A DNA stretch of 6,119 nt, taken from positions 1-6,119 of the IMG/VR virus record IMGVR_UViG_2534681763_000010, one strand, 5' to 3'. Position 1 is the first letter of the stretch, and each line of letters opens with the position of its first letter. Shown here piece by piece: positions 1 through 6,119 of the stretch. Position numbers and translations under genes: made by a program. This DNA comes from a virus. Its lineage: Duplodnaviria; Heunggongvirae; Uroviricota; Caudoviricetes. A model generated the notes under the pieces. It searched no databases. It worked only from the letters and a program-made list of their open reading frames with translations, and was not told the origin of the DNA.

Positions 1-236
1 GGTTTTGACTGGTCAGCGATGGCCTGCAACGACGCCGCCAGCGTGCCTTTTTTACCGGCCTTTGCAATTGCGCTCTGCACATTGGTAATCAGCACAGGTT
101 TATTGAGGGGAAAGGTTTCCGCATCCGCATCGCTGGCCGTGCAGACCATGCCGACAATGGCAGTGGATACGGTGGAAATGACGCGGGTGCCGTCGTTAAT
201 CTCCAGCACCTGCACGCCGTGATGATAGTCACTCAT
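1..236 (-). CDS. FI: Tail sheath protein FI, N-terminal fragment (gene continues past the window start)
   Basis: Minus-strand ATG at 236..234 preceded by GGAG about 10 nt upstream. Translation [78 protein letters not shown] matches my memory of the P2 gpFI N-terminus. The plus-strand track ORF 19..222 is the antisense shadow. Confidence 0.9.
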
Positions 237-299
237 CCGTTTAACTCCGTGGTTAATGGGTGCAACTATTTTCTGTTGTGCAGAGCATGAGACGCTATT

Positions 300-314
300 T
301 GACCTGGCTGGTCA
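300..314 (-). promoter_or_regulatory. Perfect dyad TGACC-N5-GGTCA in the short promoter region upstream of FI; candidate activator/operator site for the late sheath operon promoter
   Basis: Seen directly: TGACC at 300..304 and GGTCA at 310..314, about 80 nt upstream of the FI ATG, between a terminator and the FI ribosome-binding site. P2 late promoters are activator (Ogr)-dependent, but this dyad does not match the TGT-N12-ACA consensus I recall, so the assignment is tentative. Confidence 0.25.
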
Positions 315-330
315 GGGGATGAAACAACAG

Positions 331-358
331 ATAAAGAAAATGCGGGCAATTCGCCCGC
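331..358 (-). terminator. Rho-independent terminator (minus-strand orientation) ending the upstream cargo/tail-fibre transcript before the FI promoter
   Basis: GC-rich 6-bp stem GCGGGC (342..347) pairing with GCCCGC (353..358), 5-nt loop. On the minus-strand transcript it is followed immediately by the U-rich run AUUUUCUUUAU (plus 341..331). Confidence 0.5.
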
Positions 359-579
359 CTGTCCTGATTTGTACTCACTCATTTTCCGCCTGACAATTTA
401 CATAGCCCAAATGCTATCAAATCTGACAGTCTGCTTTGAGCGAAGAGCGGACTTGAGACTATTGTAAATGAAAACCATATAATTTTAACCGGCAGAAACA
501 CATGAGTAATTTTAAGGCTAATTAGTTATCTGGGAGATGAGGGGCAAAGCACGATATCGTACACCAATGGAATAAGCTT

Positions 580-613
580 ATGATTAATATAAATATAAAA
601 GGCAGAAAGCCTT
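580..613 (-). terminator. Weak candidate terminator-like hairpin inside the 600-bp non-coding spacer
   Basis: 5-bp stem AAGGC (599..603) / GCCTT (609..613) with loop AGAAA; on the minus strand it is followed by the U/A-rich run UUUUAUAUUUAUAUU (plus 598..580). Short stem, so low confidence. Confidence 0.25.
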
Positions 614-833
614 CCTCAAAATGGCTTGAATCGGGGGCATCTGTCTGCGAAACGATTTTTTAGACGTTTTTATCGCTTTCAGTTCAGTTTTCCCCTCGAA
701 TCCAAGTGACAAAGCCGATTTAGTTTTCACACATCCGTACAATGTGCATCCCTCGATGAGCCTTTTCAGGCAAAGTTACGGGGATGCTTGATTCATTTAA
801 ACTGAGTTAGTACAACTTAATTAATAATATCAT

Positions 834-1826
834 TTATGCTAGAGTTGAATATTCTCCATTTCCTCGGTCGGTGAGTGTTAATTCGCGGCCATTTTCTGTA
901 AATGTAATGGCATCCAGCAGGCTTTTTCCTGTTACAGCTATACCATATCCAAGGTTATCAATCTTTGAACTGTCCTCAGATGATATTGGTATTTGTACAA
1001 GCATACCAACAACAAAGCCGTATTTGTTAATTATAGGGCCACCGCTATTCCCCCCCTTAACCCTAGCATTGAATAATAAAAAGTCTTGTGAATCTAAGTA
1101 AGAGTGACCAGAACCAACAATTCGCCCCTTTGACAGTCGGACAAACGAATTTATATGCGAAACGTCATATAACTTTAATGCATCAAATCCTGGAATGGGT
1201 GGAAATCCTATTGATAAAATTTCATCCAGTACCGAGGCTTTGGTTGAGACCTTAAGTGGTTGAATATTATCTTCATTCGGAATGGTTGTGAAAACTAAAG
1301 CGATATCAATACGTTCATCGTTAGATACAAAGATTTTATGTATTGGTAAAGCCTCACCACCAGCTCTAAGTATCCTGATACTCTTCATGTCTTCAATAAC
1401 ATGTCTGGCTGTAAATATCGTGTGGTTATTCCCAACAATAAAACTAGTACCAAGATCATGTGAACCATCACTTTTTTCAACAACAACAGGTAAAACGGAA
1501 GGACTAAGGCGGTCTATGATTGACTCAAATCCATCAGCTATAAAATCATACTTTCCATATTTCGCATCTGATTCATTGAAATTCGGTGCGAAATAGCAAC
1601 GGTCCAAAAGAGTATGTCCTGAAGATAATTCCATTAAAATACCTTCAGTTGCTAGCTTTTCACAATTGCGTATTAACTTCATCATATCGAGAGTATTTTC
1701 CCACTCAGGTTTGAGACGGGTCAGGCTCTCAATTGTTTTTCTCTCTTTTACGTTATCGTTTTCCGGTTTGTCATAAAAATATTTCACTATTTCTGTTGGT
1801 GTTACATATGTTTTTTTTATAGTCAT
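834..1826 (-). CDS. Trypsin-like (chymotrypsin-fold, S1 family, HtrA/DegP-like motifs) serine protease with an uncharacterised N-terminal domain; cargo (moron) gene in the G-FI hotspot
   Basis: Long minus-strand ORF ending at TAA 836..834. Catalytic motifs in canonical His-Asp-Ser order: TARHV (His codon 1401..1403), DIALVF (Asp codon 1305..1307), GGNSGGP (Ser codon 1044..1046). No hydrophobic signal peptide or transmembrane stretch at the N-terminus, so probably cytoplasmic. About 35% GC versus about 55-63% in flanking tail genes. Start chosen at ATG 1826 (MTIKKTYV...) because a candidate promoter lies just upstream; the track ORF starts at an in-frame GTG at 1880 (18 codons longer), which cannot be excluded. 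Confidence 0.8.
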   Translation of the reverse strand: MTIKKTYVTPTEIVKYFYDKPENDNVKERKTIESLTRLKPEWENTLDMMKLIRNCEKLATEGILMELSSGHTLLDRCYFAPNFNESDAKYGKYDFIADGFESIIDRLSPSVLPVVVEKSDGSHDLGTSFIVGNNHTIFTARHVIEDMKSIRILRAGGEALPIHKIFVSNDERIDIALVFTTIPNEDNIQPLKVSTKASVLDEILSIGFPPIPGFDALKLYDVSHINSFVRLSKGRIVGSGHSYLDSQDFLLFNARVKGGNSGGPIINKYGFVVGMLVQIPISSEDSSKIDNLGYGIAVTGKSLLDAITFTENGRELTLTDRGNGEYSTLA

Positions 1827-1870
1827 TTTTGTACCCGCGATGACGTTATTCCATATATTTTTCTTTGTAG

Positions 1871-1899
1871 AAAATATCACTATTGCTGGTAAATGTTAA
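1871..1899 (-). promoter_or_regulatory. Candidate sigma70-type promoter for the protease gene
   Basis: On the minus strand, TTAACA (plus 1899..1894), 17-nt spacer, TATTTT (plus 1876..1871). This predicts a transcript start near 1864, consistent with the ATG at 1826 rather than the GTG at 1880. Pattern match only. Confidence 0.3.
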
Positions 1900-2144
1900 G
1901 TTCAGTGCTCGCACTAAAGCTGGATGATCAACGTCGCCCTCGTATGGAAATCAGGTAAGATTCATGTCTACTTGGGGTCTAGGGTAGACAGCATAAAAAC
2001 GTACGATAGCGTTCGATTGGCTCTCACCCCCGCCTATAAACCATGAGGTTGATAGGGTAGTATCGTTAGGCAATAGTATACATGTAAGTATCCAACCTAA
2101 TTGGTCTTGAGATTTCTAACTAACGTGTCGTTATGTCCGCTCCT

Positions 2145-2168
2145 GGCACAGAGCGGACTGTCAGATTA
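2145..2168 (-). other. Strong perfect hairpin about 50 nt downstream of the gene G stop: possible terminator or RNA-stability element, or part of a structured RNA
   Basis: Perfect 8-bp inverted repeat GTCCGCTC (2145..2152) / GAGCGGAC (2161..2168) with an 8-nt loop. No U-tract follows on the minus strand, so it is not a canonical intrinsic terminator. Confidence 0.4.
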
Positions 2169-2219
2169 GGCTTTACTCTGTTCTATAGGTATGTAAGCTC
2201 ACACAAGAGTTCATACAAC

Positions 2220-2747
2220 TTATTGCGGCATTTCCGGCCATTCAGGATTTGCAGGATCCACACGACTGATCAGAACGCTGTAGCGTTCCCATGATTCCAG
2301 TCGGCTACGCTCCTCATCTGTTGCCATGTTCAGTCTGACCGCGCGCTCCAGCGGCAAAATCACGGATTCAGCATCTGCAAGAAGTCTGGCTTTCCGAATT
2401 TCTGCCTGCTGCTGTAATTCCTCTGCCGTATAAATGCGTTTAATCACTTTGCCGTCCTTAAACATCCAGTTCCCTGAAATGTCCGCCCGTCGGTTAGCAG
2501 TAATATCCGCCACTTCAACAACACTTAATCCATCCGGTCTGATAGCTGTCACATCCTTTTCCACATAGTGGATGATATTATCTTTGTCGTACGCTATTTT
2601 TATCGTGTCATCAGCAAAATACTTTTGTTCTTCGTACCAGTTCTTACCATCTTCTGAAAAAAACCAGACAACATCAAAGTCCTTTGTCAATTGATATTGT
2701 TCAACCGTTTTTGGATTACCCACCGTTATATTTATCAAATGCTGCAT
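2220..2747 (-). CDS. G: Tail fibre assembly chaperone (P2 gpG-like)
   Basis: 175-aa ORF; N-terminus MQHL.N...GNPKT.EQYQLTK and C-terminus [44 protein letters not shown] match my memory of P2 gpG. The ATG at 2747 lies 3 nt downstream of the H stop codon, typical operon packing. Confidence 0.9.
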
Positions 2748-2750
2748 AAA

Positions 2751-5069
2751 TTATACCTGCGCCACGTTATACCATGTCCCGTTAATGTATTTCTGCACCG
2801 GTCTGTAATATATGCCACCAATGTTATCGGCAGAGTTTGAGCCGGTATCCTGAACAATAATGCCGGAATATACACACCCGGACGGTGCCTGATGTGTCCA
2901 TGTCATGCCATTGTTCGCAGGTTTGTATGTGGCAGCACCACCAAGCCGGATATCCCGGACATAGCGTGAATCAAAGTTGCCATAGTTAGATGGTGATACC
3001 TGCCCGTTAACAGCAAAAGTGATGCTGTTATCTGTATTTCTCTGACTGTAAAAATGCCAGCCTGCATCATCACCTAATTCAGCCACCACCGGACGACTTG
3101 AGTTTCCCCACAAATTGAATGCGGCTTCCTTCGTGGATGTATTACTGCTGCTGACCGTGAATTTTTTCCCGCTACCGGCACGTACTTTGGTACTTGAGAC
3201 AATATCACCAGTAACATTCAGGCCATGCCCCATTGATACAGCACCCGTGGCATCATTTATAATCAGCGGTCTTAAATTATTATAACTGCCTAATCTGTCA
3301 CCTGATTTAGTCAACATAAAATAAGTGCTGCTGCCATCATTCCTGATAAAGAAACCATAATTGCCATAAGCAATGCGCAGACCATTAGCACTGAGTGATG
3401 TAATCTCACCTCTTGAACGGAGACCATAAGCGGAGCTGAGTGATAATTCTTCCTGAGCATCAGTATTACCAGTCGCCCAGCGAACTACCCCGCCCTGTAC
3501 TGTTTCATGCCAGATAGTGTCTCCTTCTCCACCACGAAACTTTCTGAGATATTTTTTGCCGCCTCTGGTGCCTGAACATAAGGCCGTAGACATATAGGCA
3601 TTCTGGCTTCCGCCATCCTGATTAATCGTTCCGGTCATTGCGTCGCCCTGACGATTCCAGTCACGACGCCAGCCGGGGGAGTAGCCGTCCCCATGATTTA
3701 TGTAAGTGAATTGCGCGCTGGTTGTACCGCCACCGCTTGATGTTGTCGGCGTGGTCACTCGGATAGTGATTGCAGATTTAGTTCCCATGACCTCGACGAC
3801 ACAACCAGCCAGGTGGATATCACCACATCCGGTATCCGTAATGATTTTGTTATTTGCATATGACCAGGAGCCTTTGCACATCCAGTACGGATGATTAAAT
3901 GCACCACGGGAATCCAGCCATTCAATAAACTGAGCGGTTGTCCAGTTTCCGGCTTCAGTGCTCAAAGCGCCGCTATAAGCACGACAGGCACCGATATTTT
4001 TCGTGAAGGTATCCTTTCCCGGAATATCCGCACCGTTCTGATCTTTCTGAAGACGTTTTTCAGCATTGTCATAGGCAGACTTCACCGCTTTTGATGTTGC
4101 GGCCAGCGTTTCAGAATCACTGTTGGTGGCGCTACTGAGCTGAACAAGACCTTTCCGCGCCGTGGTGGCGTCCTGTGCAGTGTATTTCCCGTTAGCAAGG
4201 TCATACGCTGTCTTAACCGCCTTTGGCGTTGCCGCAAGCGTTTCAGAATCGCTGTTGGTGGCGCTACTGAGCTGGACAAGACCTTTTCGCGCTGTGGTGG
4301 CGTCCTGTGCAGTGTATTTCCCGTTAGCAAGGTCATATGCTGCCTTTACCGCTTTTGGTGTTGCGGCGAGCGTTTCAGACGTGCTGTTGGTGGCGCTACT
4401 GAGCTGGACAAGGCCTTTTCGCGCTGTGGTGGCATCCTGCGCAGTGTATTTCCCGTTAGCAAGATCATACGCGGCCTTTACCGCTTTCGGCGTTGCGGCC
4501 AGTGTTTCAGACGTGCTGTTGGTCGCATTGCTTAACTGAGTAAAACCTTTTGCGGTCAGCGAGGCGTCCGGGTGACGTCGTGACTGTTCATGCTCTGCAA
4601 TTTTGTCATCAACGTAATCCTGCGTCGCCATCACCGTTGTGGTGTCAATGGTCAGCGCCACTGAGGCCACACTGCTGACGATGATGACCATGCGACAGGT
4701 CTGCGAACGCCCTGAGCCTTCGGCAAGAGCTGGCTTATAACTTTCGGCCATGTTCGCCACGGCAATTAATGTTCCCGCATCATCGTACAGGCCAAGCTCA
4801 CGCATCCAGAAACCGCCCACCTCCGGCGGAATAACCAGCTCTGCGATAATATAATTACTGTTTCGTTTGTCCTGGCTGATTTTGTTCAGCGCATGTCGCC
4901 AGACTTCATGGATAAGCCCGGTCTGTCCGGCATTCGGGACAGGCAATTTACCACCGCCATCCCCGACGGCCATCGTGGTAATGTTGACCTTCCGCCCTCC
5001 CGGCGCGGTTGCCGCTGCCAGCTTTGCTGCACCGGCAGTGGTGATAACGGTTCTGAATTTTGTGCTCAT
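2751..5069 (-). CDS. H: Tail fibre protein (P2 gpH-like), mosaic: conserved N-terminal baseplate-attachment region, expanded 44-aa repeat shaft, divergent central region, P2-like C-terminus
   Basis: 772-aa ORF with GAGGA 5 nt upstream of the ATG at 5069. The N-terminal approx. 170 aa (MSTKFRTVITTAGAAKLAAA...ATQDYVDDKIAEHEQSRRHPDA) and the C-terminal approx. 138 aa (...AGWHFYSQRNTDNS...PVQKYINGTWYNVAQV) resemble P2 H as I recall it. It is longer than P2 H (about 669 aa from memory). Confidence 0.9.
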   Translation of the reverse strand: MSTKFRTVITTAGAAKLAAATAPGGRKVNITTMAVGDGGGKLPVPNAGQTGLIHEVWRHALNKISQDKRNSNYIIAELVIPPEVGGFWMRELGLYDDAGTLIAVANMAESYKPALAEGSGRSQTCRMVIIVSSVASVALTIDTTTVMATQDYVDDKIAEHEQSRRHPDASLTAKGFTQLSNATNSTSETLAATPKAVKAAYDLANGKYTAQDATTARKGLVQLSSATNSTSETLAATPKAVKAAYDLANGKYTAQDATTARKGLVQLSSATNSDSETLAATPKAVKTAYDLANGKYTAQDATTARKGLVQLSSATNSDSETLAATSKAVKSAYDNAEKRLQKDQNGADIPGKDTFTKNIGACRAYSGALSTEAGNWTTAQFIEWLDSRGAFNHPYWMCKGSWSYANNKIITDTGCGDIHLAGCVVEVMGTKSAITIRVTTPTTSSGGGTTSAQFTYINHGDGYSPGWRRDWNRQGDAMTGTINQDGGSQNAYMSTALCSGTRGGKKYLRKFRGGEGDTIWHETVQGGVVRWATGNTDAQEELSLSSAYGLRSRGEITSLSANGLRIAYGNYGFFIRNDGSSTYFMLTKSGDRLGSYNNLRPLIINDATGAVSMGHGLNVTGDIVSSTKVRAGSGKKFTVSSSNTSTKEAAFNLWGNSSRPVVAELGDDAGWHFYSQRNTDNSITFAVNGQVSPSNYGNFDSRYVRDIRLGGAATYKPANNGMTWTHQAPSGCVYSGIIVQDTGSNSADNIGGIYYRPVQKYINGTWYNVAQV
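4040..4560. repeat. Tandem 132-bp (44-codon) in-frame repeats inside tail-fibre gene H: three near-full copies plus diverged partial copies at each end
   Basis: The motif GCTACTGAGCTG(A/G)ACAAG recurs at 4131, 4263 and 4395, an exact 132-nt period. Encoded units read TARKGLVQLSSATNS(T/D)SETLAATPKAVK(A/T)AYDLANGKYTAQDAT. The repeats also generate the spurious overlapping track ORFs 4082..4336 (-) and 4162..4539 (+). Confidence 0.85.
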
Positions 5070-5079
5070 TATTCCTCAC

Positions 5080-5610
5080 TTATCCGGGATAAACCGTAAT
5101 TACATCGCCGTCGTAAGCCACACCACCGGCGAACAGGTAGCCGGGAATGTCCCGGGTAATGTTCAGGCCAATAAGGTGACGGCTTGCAGGTTTGGCATCA
5201 GCAATCAGCCGTTCCATTTCCTGATACATTGCCTCTGTGATGCCACTTTCCAGTACACCAATATCAAGCCGGAAGGTGCCGGGCGGGTCACTGTTTTCCC
5301 ACCACTCCGTCACGTTGATGAGATAGCCGAGCGGCTCCACCACACGCCGGATTGCACCTATAGTGCCTTTATGACAGTGGATGAAATACGCATCGCGGAT
5401 AACGGCGCGTTTTGTCGCTTCCGGCCACTTCTCATCCCACCTGTCGACCGAAAACGCCCACGCCAGCCACGGCAGCAAATTTGCCGGACAGGTATCCGGG
5501 TTCCACAGCTCACGAATACTGACCGGCGTTTTTTCAATTTCCGCACAGGCTTTTGCGGCGGCGACCTCAAGCGGTGATGAGCCGGTCGGCAGCAGTCGCG
5601 AATCACTCAT
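5080..5610 (-). CDS. I: Baseplate/tail protein I (P2 gpI-like)
   Basis: 176-aa ORF directly upstream of H on the coding strand; the sequence (MSDSRLLPTGSSPLEVAAAKACAEIEK...) agrees with my memory of P2 gpI. Its ATG at 5610 overlaps the J stop codon by 8 nt (ATGAGTGA), indicating translational coupling. Confidence 0.9.
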   Translation of the reverse strand: MSDSRLLPTGSSPLEVAAAKACAEIEKTPVSIRELWNPDTCPANLLPWLAWAFSVDRWDEKWPEATKRAVIRDAYFIHCHKGTIGAIRRVVEPLGYLINVTEWWENSDPPGTFRLDIGVLESGITEAMYQEMERLIADAKPASRHLIGLNITRDIPGYLFAGGVAYDGDVITVYPG

Positions 5611-6119
5611 CCGAGCCTCCGGTCACGACGCGGTATTCGGTACAGAAAGACGCCTGCGTACTGTTGAGCACGATGTCGGCCAGTGGTGCAGCCAGTTCGA
5701 CACGCTGCACACCTTCCACATGCAAAGCGGCATAAATGGCAGACAGACGGATGTCACGCCCCAGCCGGTGCTGTGCCGTGATATACGCTTCCAGTTTTTT
5801 CACGGCGGCAGCGCGGATGGGTTCGCTTTCGGGACCAGGGTAAAGGTAAAGCGTGGCGTTTATCTGGTATTCAACAATGGCGGCAGACTGCACGGTCACG
5901 CGGTCGGCCACCGGCCTGACGTCCTCGCCATTAAGGGCGTTACGCACCGCCGCCAGCAGATCTTCGGATGCCACACCGTTATTTTCACGTGACAGCACGG
6001 AGATGGTGACGCAGGCCGGAGACGGACTGGTGACAGAGATATCCGCGACACGCCCGTCGGCACTGCGACCATGATACTGATAGGCTCCCACCGACCCGGC
6101 GACGCTTAAGCCTTCAAAC
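5603..6119 (-). CDS. J: Baseplate assembly protein J (P2 gpJ-like), C-terminal part (gene continues past the window end)
   Basis: The track ORF starts at an internal GTG at 6091, but the frame stays open to the window edge; codons 6118..6092 read FEGLSVAGS, continuous with VGAYQYHGRSADGRVADISVTSP..., which matches P2 gpJ as I recall it. Stop TGA at 5605..5603. Confidence 0.9.
   Translation of the reverse strand, partial: FEGLSVAGSVGAYQYHGRSADGRVADISVTSPSPACVTISVLSRENNGVASEDLLAAVRNALNGEDVRPVADRVTVQSAAIVEYQINATLYLYPGPESEPIRAAAVKKLEAYITAQHRLGRDIRLSAIYAALHVEGVQRVELAAPLADIVLNSTQASFCTEYRVVTGGSDE

Follow-up and report, generated by a model that had tools for sequence, protein, structure and literature searches.

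Proteases of the HtrA type are held inactive and are allosterically switched on through an appended ligand-binding domain. For the Lit protease of the e14 prophage, a zinc metalloprotease without a winged helix, the activator is a T4 capsid peptide. Trypsin-like proteases keep turning up as components of bacterial immunity, and those known so far are either fused to large sensors (Hachiman, AVAST, Lamassu, and retrons) or found with partner pro-nucleases. Pairs that combine a trypsin-like protease with a metallo-β-lactamase (MBL) pro-nuclease have been described in Hachiman, AVAST (Avs1), Lamassu, and DRT/UG9 systems, where the protease is fused N-terminally to HamA, Avs1, LmuA, or a reverse transcriptase (RT) and the gene for the MBL-fold nuclease always lies immediately upstream (Tuck et al. 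2025; PMC12799240; bioRxiv 10.1101/2025.09.03.673762). Here we analyze a 6,119-nucleotide (nt) stretch of viral DNA (IMG/VR record IMGVR_UViG_2534681763_000010, positions 1 to 6,119; hereafter, the window), which covers the tail module of a P2-like prophage with its genes on the minus strand. An S1 protease of 330 amino acids (aa) is encoded at 834..1826 (minus strand), and an earlier reading made from the letters alone (the sequence-only reading) had singled out its N-terminal region as a candidate sensor. Our data indicate that this region is built of a winged-helix (wH) domain and a helical connector, followed by the start of an HtrA-type S1 fold; this anatomy is well supported. We put the probability that the N-terminus serves a single-gene defense protease as its regulatory or specificity module at roughly 45%, and we infer the defense role of the protein from its genomic context.

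Domain anatomy of the protease and its N-terminal module

The gene is supported by the list of open reading frames (ORFs), its RefSeq coding sequence (CDS), its homologues, and a phage protein family. The RefSeq CDS is 993 nt long (WP_000152899.1) and is named 'S1 family peptidase', while PHROG 18002 (phrog_18002, function unknown) matches the protein over its full length (1-330 of 330). Translation starts at the ATG at 1826, rather than at an in-frame GTG upstream at 1880, because homologues start from the same Met, and the stop codon occupies 834-836. Positions 1404-1826 (minus strand) translate without a stop into 141 aa, from MTIKK to TIFTAR, and the next residue is the catalytic His142.

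The sequence-only reading described these residues as an unassigned domain of about 130 aa fused to the protease. We found that a discrete, confidently folded, family-specific module does exist, but that its boundary was misplaced, as the protease fold begins from residue ~100. The 141 aa are a wH domain, a connector, and the start of the S1 fold, and not one domain. Residues ~8-80 (1587..1805, minus strand) form a three-helix bundle (helices 10-18, 32-36, and 48-60) followed by a two-stranded β-hairpin wing (strands 65-68 and 77-79), the arrangement that defines a winged helix; on the evidence of the predicted structure, this segment is a divergent wH domain. Residues ~81-99 (1530..1586, minus strand) form the helical connector, placed by the alignments and by helices 85-90 and 92-98. 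The connector is the best-conserved portion of the N-terminal module and carries its strongest family motif (A-x-Y90-G91-x-Y93-D94-F95...G99-F100), and it had no match in PDB or Pfam. Residues ~100-141 (1404..1529, minus strand) are the start of the HtrA-type S1 fold, as indicated by PDB profile alignments, Pfam, and DSSP assignment of the model, which assigns residues 100-110 to a helix and residues 111-117, 123-131, and 136-139 to the first barrel strands, ahead of the helix that carries His142.

The full-length AlphaFold2 model has a mean predicted local distance difference test score (pLDDT) of 87.4 and a predicted template-modeling score (pTM) of 0.86; given these values, the wH and the protease appear to be placed confidently relative to each other. 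Modeled by itself, the N-terminal segment adopted the same fold (pLDDT 84.9). Profile alignments to HtrA, DegS, and MarP in PDB begin at profile positions 101-122 and never earlier, and with a profile of the junction (residues 82-180) PDB alignments start at residues ~107-125. Since the S1 fold runs from residue ~100, the non-protease part comprises ~100 aa rather than ~130-141, and truncation or mutant constructs should be designed around a boundary at ~99/100 instead of ~130-141. The possibility raised at the outset that the N-terminal region is a pro-peptide, or simply the N-terminal barrel half of the S1 fold, holds for residues ~100-141 and does not extend to residues 1-99.

The sequence-only reading also stated that the region bears no recognizable motif. 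At the level of sequence this is borne out, as the first 141 residues had no significant upstream-domain match in Pfam, NCBIfam, or PADLOC and PHROG 18002 was the sole family to match them; at the level of fold it is not, given the winged helix at residues ~8-80. The remote-homology comparison that it proposed returned nothing significant when the N-terminal alignment profile was searched against PDB sequences, whereas prediction of the structure gave a confident fold. A fold search against the viral structures of BFVD likewise gave nothing significant (best E=0.19). The weak matches were set aside. Sequence-family hits to YjjI-like proteins (E~0.02) and to DEP in one family member (2e-4) were judged to be noise, and the best PDB profile match, to the RAM domain of the AsnC family (E=0.07) by way of a YGEYD motif, was judged to be chance.

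The remainder of the protein, residues 142-330 (837..1403, minus strand), is protease by its invariant columns, Pfam, Foldseek, and pLDDT. Pfam Trypsin_2 matches residues 126-275 (E=1.7e-17) and Pfam Trypsin matches residues 119-279. The catalytic residues are invariant in an alignment of 56 homologues and are encoded on the minus strand at 1401-1403 (His142), 1305-1307 (Asp174), and 1044-1046 (Ser261, within KGGNSGGP). A family-profile search of PDB sequences returned HtrA/DegS/MarP-type and Deg2 matches (E~1e-14), and a Foldseek search of the full-length model against PDB returned DegS, DegP, and DegQ (E~1e-14, template-modeling score 0.5 over ~220-250 columns); this search was dominated by HtrA proteases and is uninformative on the N-terminus. 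Among defense-system profiles, the best PADLOC match of the protease domain is the retron type XI RT-Protease_XI (E=7e-13, residues 115-279), and the protease-fused LmuA (E=4e-10) and HamA (E=2e-7) also match, in their protease part only. No PDZ domain was found in the protein (Pfam, E<=0.1), and just ~30 residues follow the protease fold. We found neither a signal peptide nor a transmembrane segment (maximum 19-residue Kyte-Doolittle mean of 1.2), and the first 30 residues are strongly hydrophilic (-1.2). Judged by these sequence features, the protein is a cytoplasmic, PDZ-less, HtrA-like protease.

Two segments of the protease part differ from the rest. A conserved loop at residues 212-226 (1149-1193, minus strand) is the sole segment of the model with very low confidence (pLDDT <50). 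It sits inside the protease, directly after a conserved GFPPIPGFDA motif, and we take it to be an insertion relative to HtrA sequences; it could be a regulatory or autocleavage loop. The C-terminal tail, residues 300-330 (837-929, minus strand), is modeled as two short helices and a β-hairpin and is the most variable region of the protein; despite this variability it terminates in a recurrent G-[FY]-x-T motif. Because the PDZ domains of HtrA proteases read C-terminal peptides, it is conceivable that this tail acts in self-regulation. Furthermore, one full-length metagenomic family member (P0153) has lost the catalytic His (TARH to TSAG) and the GNSGG Ser motif and keeps the wH and connector. 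It is possibly a pseudo-protease, and its sequence hints that the N-terminal module might function without catalysis.

Conservation, family architecture, and the mobile cassette

A search of 5.8 billion proteins returned 74 relatives, nearly all of ~330 aa, from Escherichia, Pseudomonas, Nitrospina, Bacteroidota, and metagenomes, and coverage extends to the N-terminus even at 40% identity. Its retention in Escherichia, Pseudomonas, Nitrospina, and Bacteroidota alike marks the N-terminus as a module under selection rather than a chance stretch. Within the N-terminal part of the 56-sequence alignment, G99 is invariant and F17, Y90, Y93, F100, and V111 are each conserved in at least 90% of members. 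Compared with the query, mean identity drops from 0.50 in the protease to 0.41 in the connector, 0.29 in the wH, and 0.22 in the C-terminal tail. The wH is therefore the most variable folded region, with its core hydrophobic residues and the connector kept; such faster evolution is what a specificity or regulatory domain would be expected to look like.

We also asked which class of wH the composition of the module supports. The wH and connector together are acidic (median isoelectric point 5.75), with a net positive charge in 10 of the 56 members, and no column of the wH module exceeds 70% Lys or Arg (K30 70%, R53 50%, K57 52%). The domain did not place among the DNA-binding winged helix-turn-helix (wHTH) families PadR, MarR, ArsR, or Fur, with no Pfam helix-turn-helix family above noise. 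An acidic module with no strongly basic column speaks against conserved binding of DNA or RNA and is in keeping with the protein-binding class of wH domains. On these grounds of composition, protein binding is favored over DNA binding.

The module is tied to one kind of partner. An exhaustive hidden Markov model search with the N-terminal profile across 1.84 billion cluster representatives found 139 proteins only, 127 of them new to that search. The new matches comprise 87 full-length wH-protease proteins, 26 colinear C-truncated fragments, and a remainder that is partial or mis-started; the lone unrelated match (P0183) is a repeat protein that matches only the short YGxYDF segment. In none of the 139 was the wH module joined to another effector, and it was found only N-terminal to the ~330-aa protease of its own family. 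This exclusive architecture rules out a promiscuous, shuffled sensor common to several effectors.

The protease gene is the sole supported gene of an insert between the tail-fibre assembly gene G and the sheath gene FI, and the GC content of this insert is 0.37-0.40 compared to 0.52-0.58 in its flanks. A consensus scan predicts a sigma-70-like promoter at 1871..1899 (minus strand; TTAACA, a 17-nt spacer, and TATTTT, with an extended -10 TG) ~45 nt upstream of the protease ATG. The same scan alone places a terminator-like hairpin at 597..615 (minus strand), ~220 nt downstream of the stop. A copy with 86% identity occurs on Klebsiella IncF plasmids, adjoining IS3 and a GNAT/DUF1778 toxin-antitoxin pair. 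DNA homology between the Escherichia coli and Klebsiella copies is confined to a stretch that begins ~135 nt upstream of the ATG and ends ~70 nt beyond the stop (window ~760-1960; ~7850-9050 of the Klebsiella michiganensis IncF plasmid locus, L009). It thus retains the promoter region, and neither the outer flanks nor the terminator-like hairpin are shared. Since the homology covers promoter and ORF only, the mobile unit is one gene with its own promoter. The other ~480 bp of the cargo (453-760 and 1960-2134) are unrelated to the plasmid copy, hold no supported ORF, and may be a remnant of earlier cargo. We found no further supported ORF (>=60 aa) and no Rfam RNA in the cargo, and with a cassette made up of promoter and ORF, we rejected the idea that the island hides a partner gene or RNA.

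The insertion site is a known kind of hotspot. The P2-type sheath gene start seen here occurs in approximately 1,690 E. coli genomes and the protease island in just 41; three other prophages hold unrelated hypothetical genes between G and FI. Variable cargo between G and FI is the mark of the P2 fun(Z) hotspot, and the locus that holds fun in P2 was reported as a second defense-enriched hotspot of P2 (Vassallo et al. 2022; PMC9519451). No copy of the protease gene was found among the sequenced free phages of INPHARED. The entire cargo (453-2134) is flanked by a 33-nt inverted repeat (85% complementary by repeat search), with an FI-proximal arm at 420..452 and a G-proximal arm at 2135..2167, the latter 53 nt beyond the stop codon of the tail-fibre assembly gene; each arm is itself a hairpin. 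Its core motif occurs twice in the window compared to 0.01 occurrences expected, and three other E. coli P2-like prophages with unrelated cargo have the core AATCTGACAGTCNGCT in inverted orientation at each edge of the slot (L010 4920/6012, L011 4920/6511, and L012 4920/6843). The inverted repeats are likely to be conserved hotspot borders, serving as terminators and/or as recombination anchors for cassette swapping.

We sampled 11 genomic contexts of homologues. Among distant homologues no conserved neighbor gene was found, and six to seven of the 11 contexts are suggestive of defense or mobile elements. In Pseudomonas, one homologue (P0013) lies between HEPN_AbiU2 and DUF4238 genes in a DUF927/Toprim integrative element, and a DUF4238 protein was reported to be protective against T7 (Rousset et al.). 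Further homologues lie with an RT and an SNF2 helicase, with a type I restriction-modification (R-M) system, UmuDC, and a transposase, with TPR-CHAT, a kinase, and an SMC-like ATPase, and beside an FRG-domain gene. The identical Pseudomonas protein occurs in two settings, in the DUF927/Toprim element and beside a type III secretion system cluster (observation at L003 538-1146 and 4306-5532). In a Pseudomonas and in an unrelated Bacteroidota-like contig, an SDH_protease gene (PF01972, ClpP-like; L002 2649-3515 and L014 14686-15705) is found at a distance of ~5 kb from the homologue; this proximity may be coincidence.

The remaining genes of the window were identified from the ORF list, Pfam, and the annotation that RefSeq gives for an identical locus in E. 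coli. All lie on the minus strand: baseplate gene J (5603-6091, cut by the window), tail protein I (5080-5610), tail fibre H (2751-5069), tail-fibre assembly G (2220-2747), and, from ~234 downwards, the beginning of the sheath gene FI. Gene H contains four tandem Phage_fiber_2 repeats of ~40 aa, with near-identical KGLVQLSSATNS...AATPKAVKAAYDLANGKYTAQDATTAR units, as well as a T4 gp34-like trimerization domain. The RefSeq copy of this otherwise identical locus annotates H as broken pseudogene fragments, which probably reflects trouble with assembly or annotation at the repeats.

Proposed function and alternatives

We hypothesized that the wH serves as a protein- or peptide-binding domain, like wH domains of the RPA32C/Stn1 type, and that it would do for this protease the job that PDZ domains do in DegS and DegP. 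At rest, the protease would be held inactive. A phage-made protein, or a host protein altered by the phage, would bind the wH, and the rigid YGxYDF...GF connector would relay the signal to the protease barrel, either to switch it on or to recruit substrate. The protease would then cleave essential host or phage proteins, so that infection is aborted and the population of lysogens is protected. By analogy, this logic would resemble the activation of DegS through its PDZ domain and that of Lit of e14. The sequence-only reading had cast the N-terminus as a sensor or determinant of specificity; in favor of this are its standing as the fastest-evolving folded part, the absence of a PDZ domain, and the P2 defense hotspot, but it is not a shuffled sensor, as it is joined to no other effector. 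Stated in full, the proposal is a single-protein abortive-infection system in which an acidic, fast-evolving wH recognizes a phage protein and the connector allosterically licenses a PDZ-less HtrA-like protease, and in this full form we consider it tentative and rather unlikely.

Several observations weigh against a regulatory module in a defense protease. The conserved wH positions (I13, F17, C55, L58, G62, and L64) are buried hydrophobics, and no conserved ligand site on the wH was identified. Of the 11 contexts sampled, four or five are housekeeping surroundings or uninformative, no PADLOC system model spans the whole protein, and searches of the literature by accession, Pfam identifier, and keyword found no work linking the family to phage defense and no study of the family at all. 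In addition, a purely structural domain would be just as likely to show exclusive coupling to one protease.

Such a structural role is the strongest competitor, albeit an unlikely one in our estimate. The wH and the C-terminal helices could form a PadR-type dimerization unit or an intramolecular scaffold that assembles or stabilizes an oligomer, or the region could be a pro-domain; the wH would then sense nothing, and any regulation would fall to another part, such as the 212-226 loop or the C-terminal tail. A domain of this kind is not expected to diverge markedly faster than its partner, as the wH does (0.29 vs 0.50). Furthermore, HtrA proteases trimerize via the protease domain and need a separate regulatory domain, of which no other is present here, and toxicity would be expected of a cytoplasmic protease that lacked regulation and was carried on a mobile cassette.

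We give still less credence to two other explanations. The wH could be a nucleic-acid-binding wHTH that binds phage DNA, structured RNA, or its own operator and so tethers or activates the protease, or the protein could be a self-cleaving regulator of the LexA/CI type with S1 in place of S24; the acidic charge of the module makes binding of this kind quite improbable. The gene could also be a non-defense prophage 'moron' whose protease acts in host physiology, processing of host or prophage proteins, competition, or virulence, with the wH as a substrate adaptor. Homologues amid housekeeping genes (Nitrospina and a Bacteroidota metagenome-assembled genome) or beside the type III secretion cluster of Pseudomonas fit this view, the family is named by no defense database, and P2 hotspots have been reported to hold non-defense cargo as well, such as partition systems and a cytolethal distending toxin (Rousset et al.). 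We nevertheless regard it as a poor candidate: the gene sits in the fun/Z hotspot, Abi, R-M, RT, CHAT, helicase, and mobile-element neighbors recur in distant phyla, the protease domain is closest to those of defense systems, and a cytoplasmic protein is not a secreted virulence factor.

Comparison with known systems

If the N-terminus is a regulatory module of a defense protease, this one-gene cassette of 330 aa would be among the smallest self-contained sensor-effector units, one that moves between P2 prophage hotspots, plasmids, defense islands, and integrative elements. It would then represent a new sensor-effector wiring in bacterial immunity and a new mode of regulation for HtrA-type proteases and, because HtrA allostery is well understood, a tractable model for non-PDZ gating of this class.

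The protease fold, the GNSGGP oxyanion and Ser motif, and the His-Asp-Ser triad are those of HtrA, DegS, DegP, and DegQ (MEROPS S1C). The protein lacks the C-terminal PDZ and the extracytoplasmic location of these enzymes; its appended domain is an N-terminal winged helix instead, and it resides on mobile cassettes whereas HtrA is a housekeeping quality-control gene. The wH most resembles the protein-binding wH domains of the RPA32C/Stn1 type. Its identity to the C-terminal domains of RPA32 and Stn1, the winged-helix domain of Cdc6/ORC, and PadR/MarR is only ~10%, with no sequence-profile link, and unlike these families it is fused to a protease by way of the family-specific YGxYDF...GF connector. 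The pairing of a wH with a self-cleaving S24 domain (Ser-Lys dyad) seen in LexA and CI is not found here, as the protease is S1.

Among defense systems, retron type XI is likewise encoded by a single gene with a trypsin-like effector at the C-terminus. Unlike it, the protein has no RVT domain (Pfam) and the island no Rfam noncoding RNA, and the N-terminal partner is a wH module of ~100 aa. With the trypsin-MBL pairs the protein has in common a trypsin-like protease, which is there a defense component. It differs in that a small wH precedes the protease, with which the protein ends, and the cassette is of one gene; no MBL/Lactamase_B gene was found in any of the 11 sampled contexts. Lit offers a functional analogy as a prophage-borne, single-gene, cytoplasmic protease, and like it the present protein would stay dormant until a phage product appears and would then abort infection. 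We infer that, if the defense role is true, the family is a previously unnamed system that belongs among the defense-associated trypsin-like proteases.
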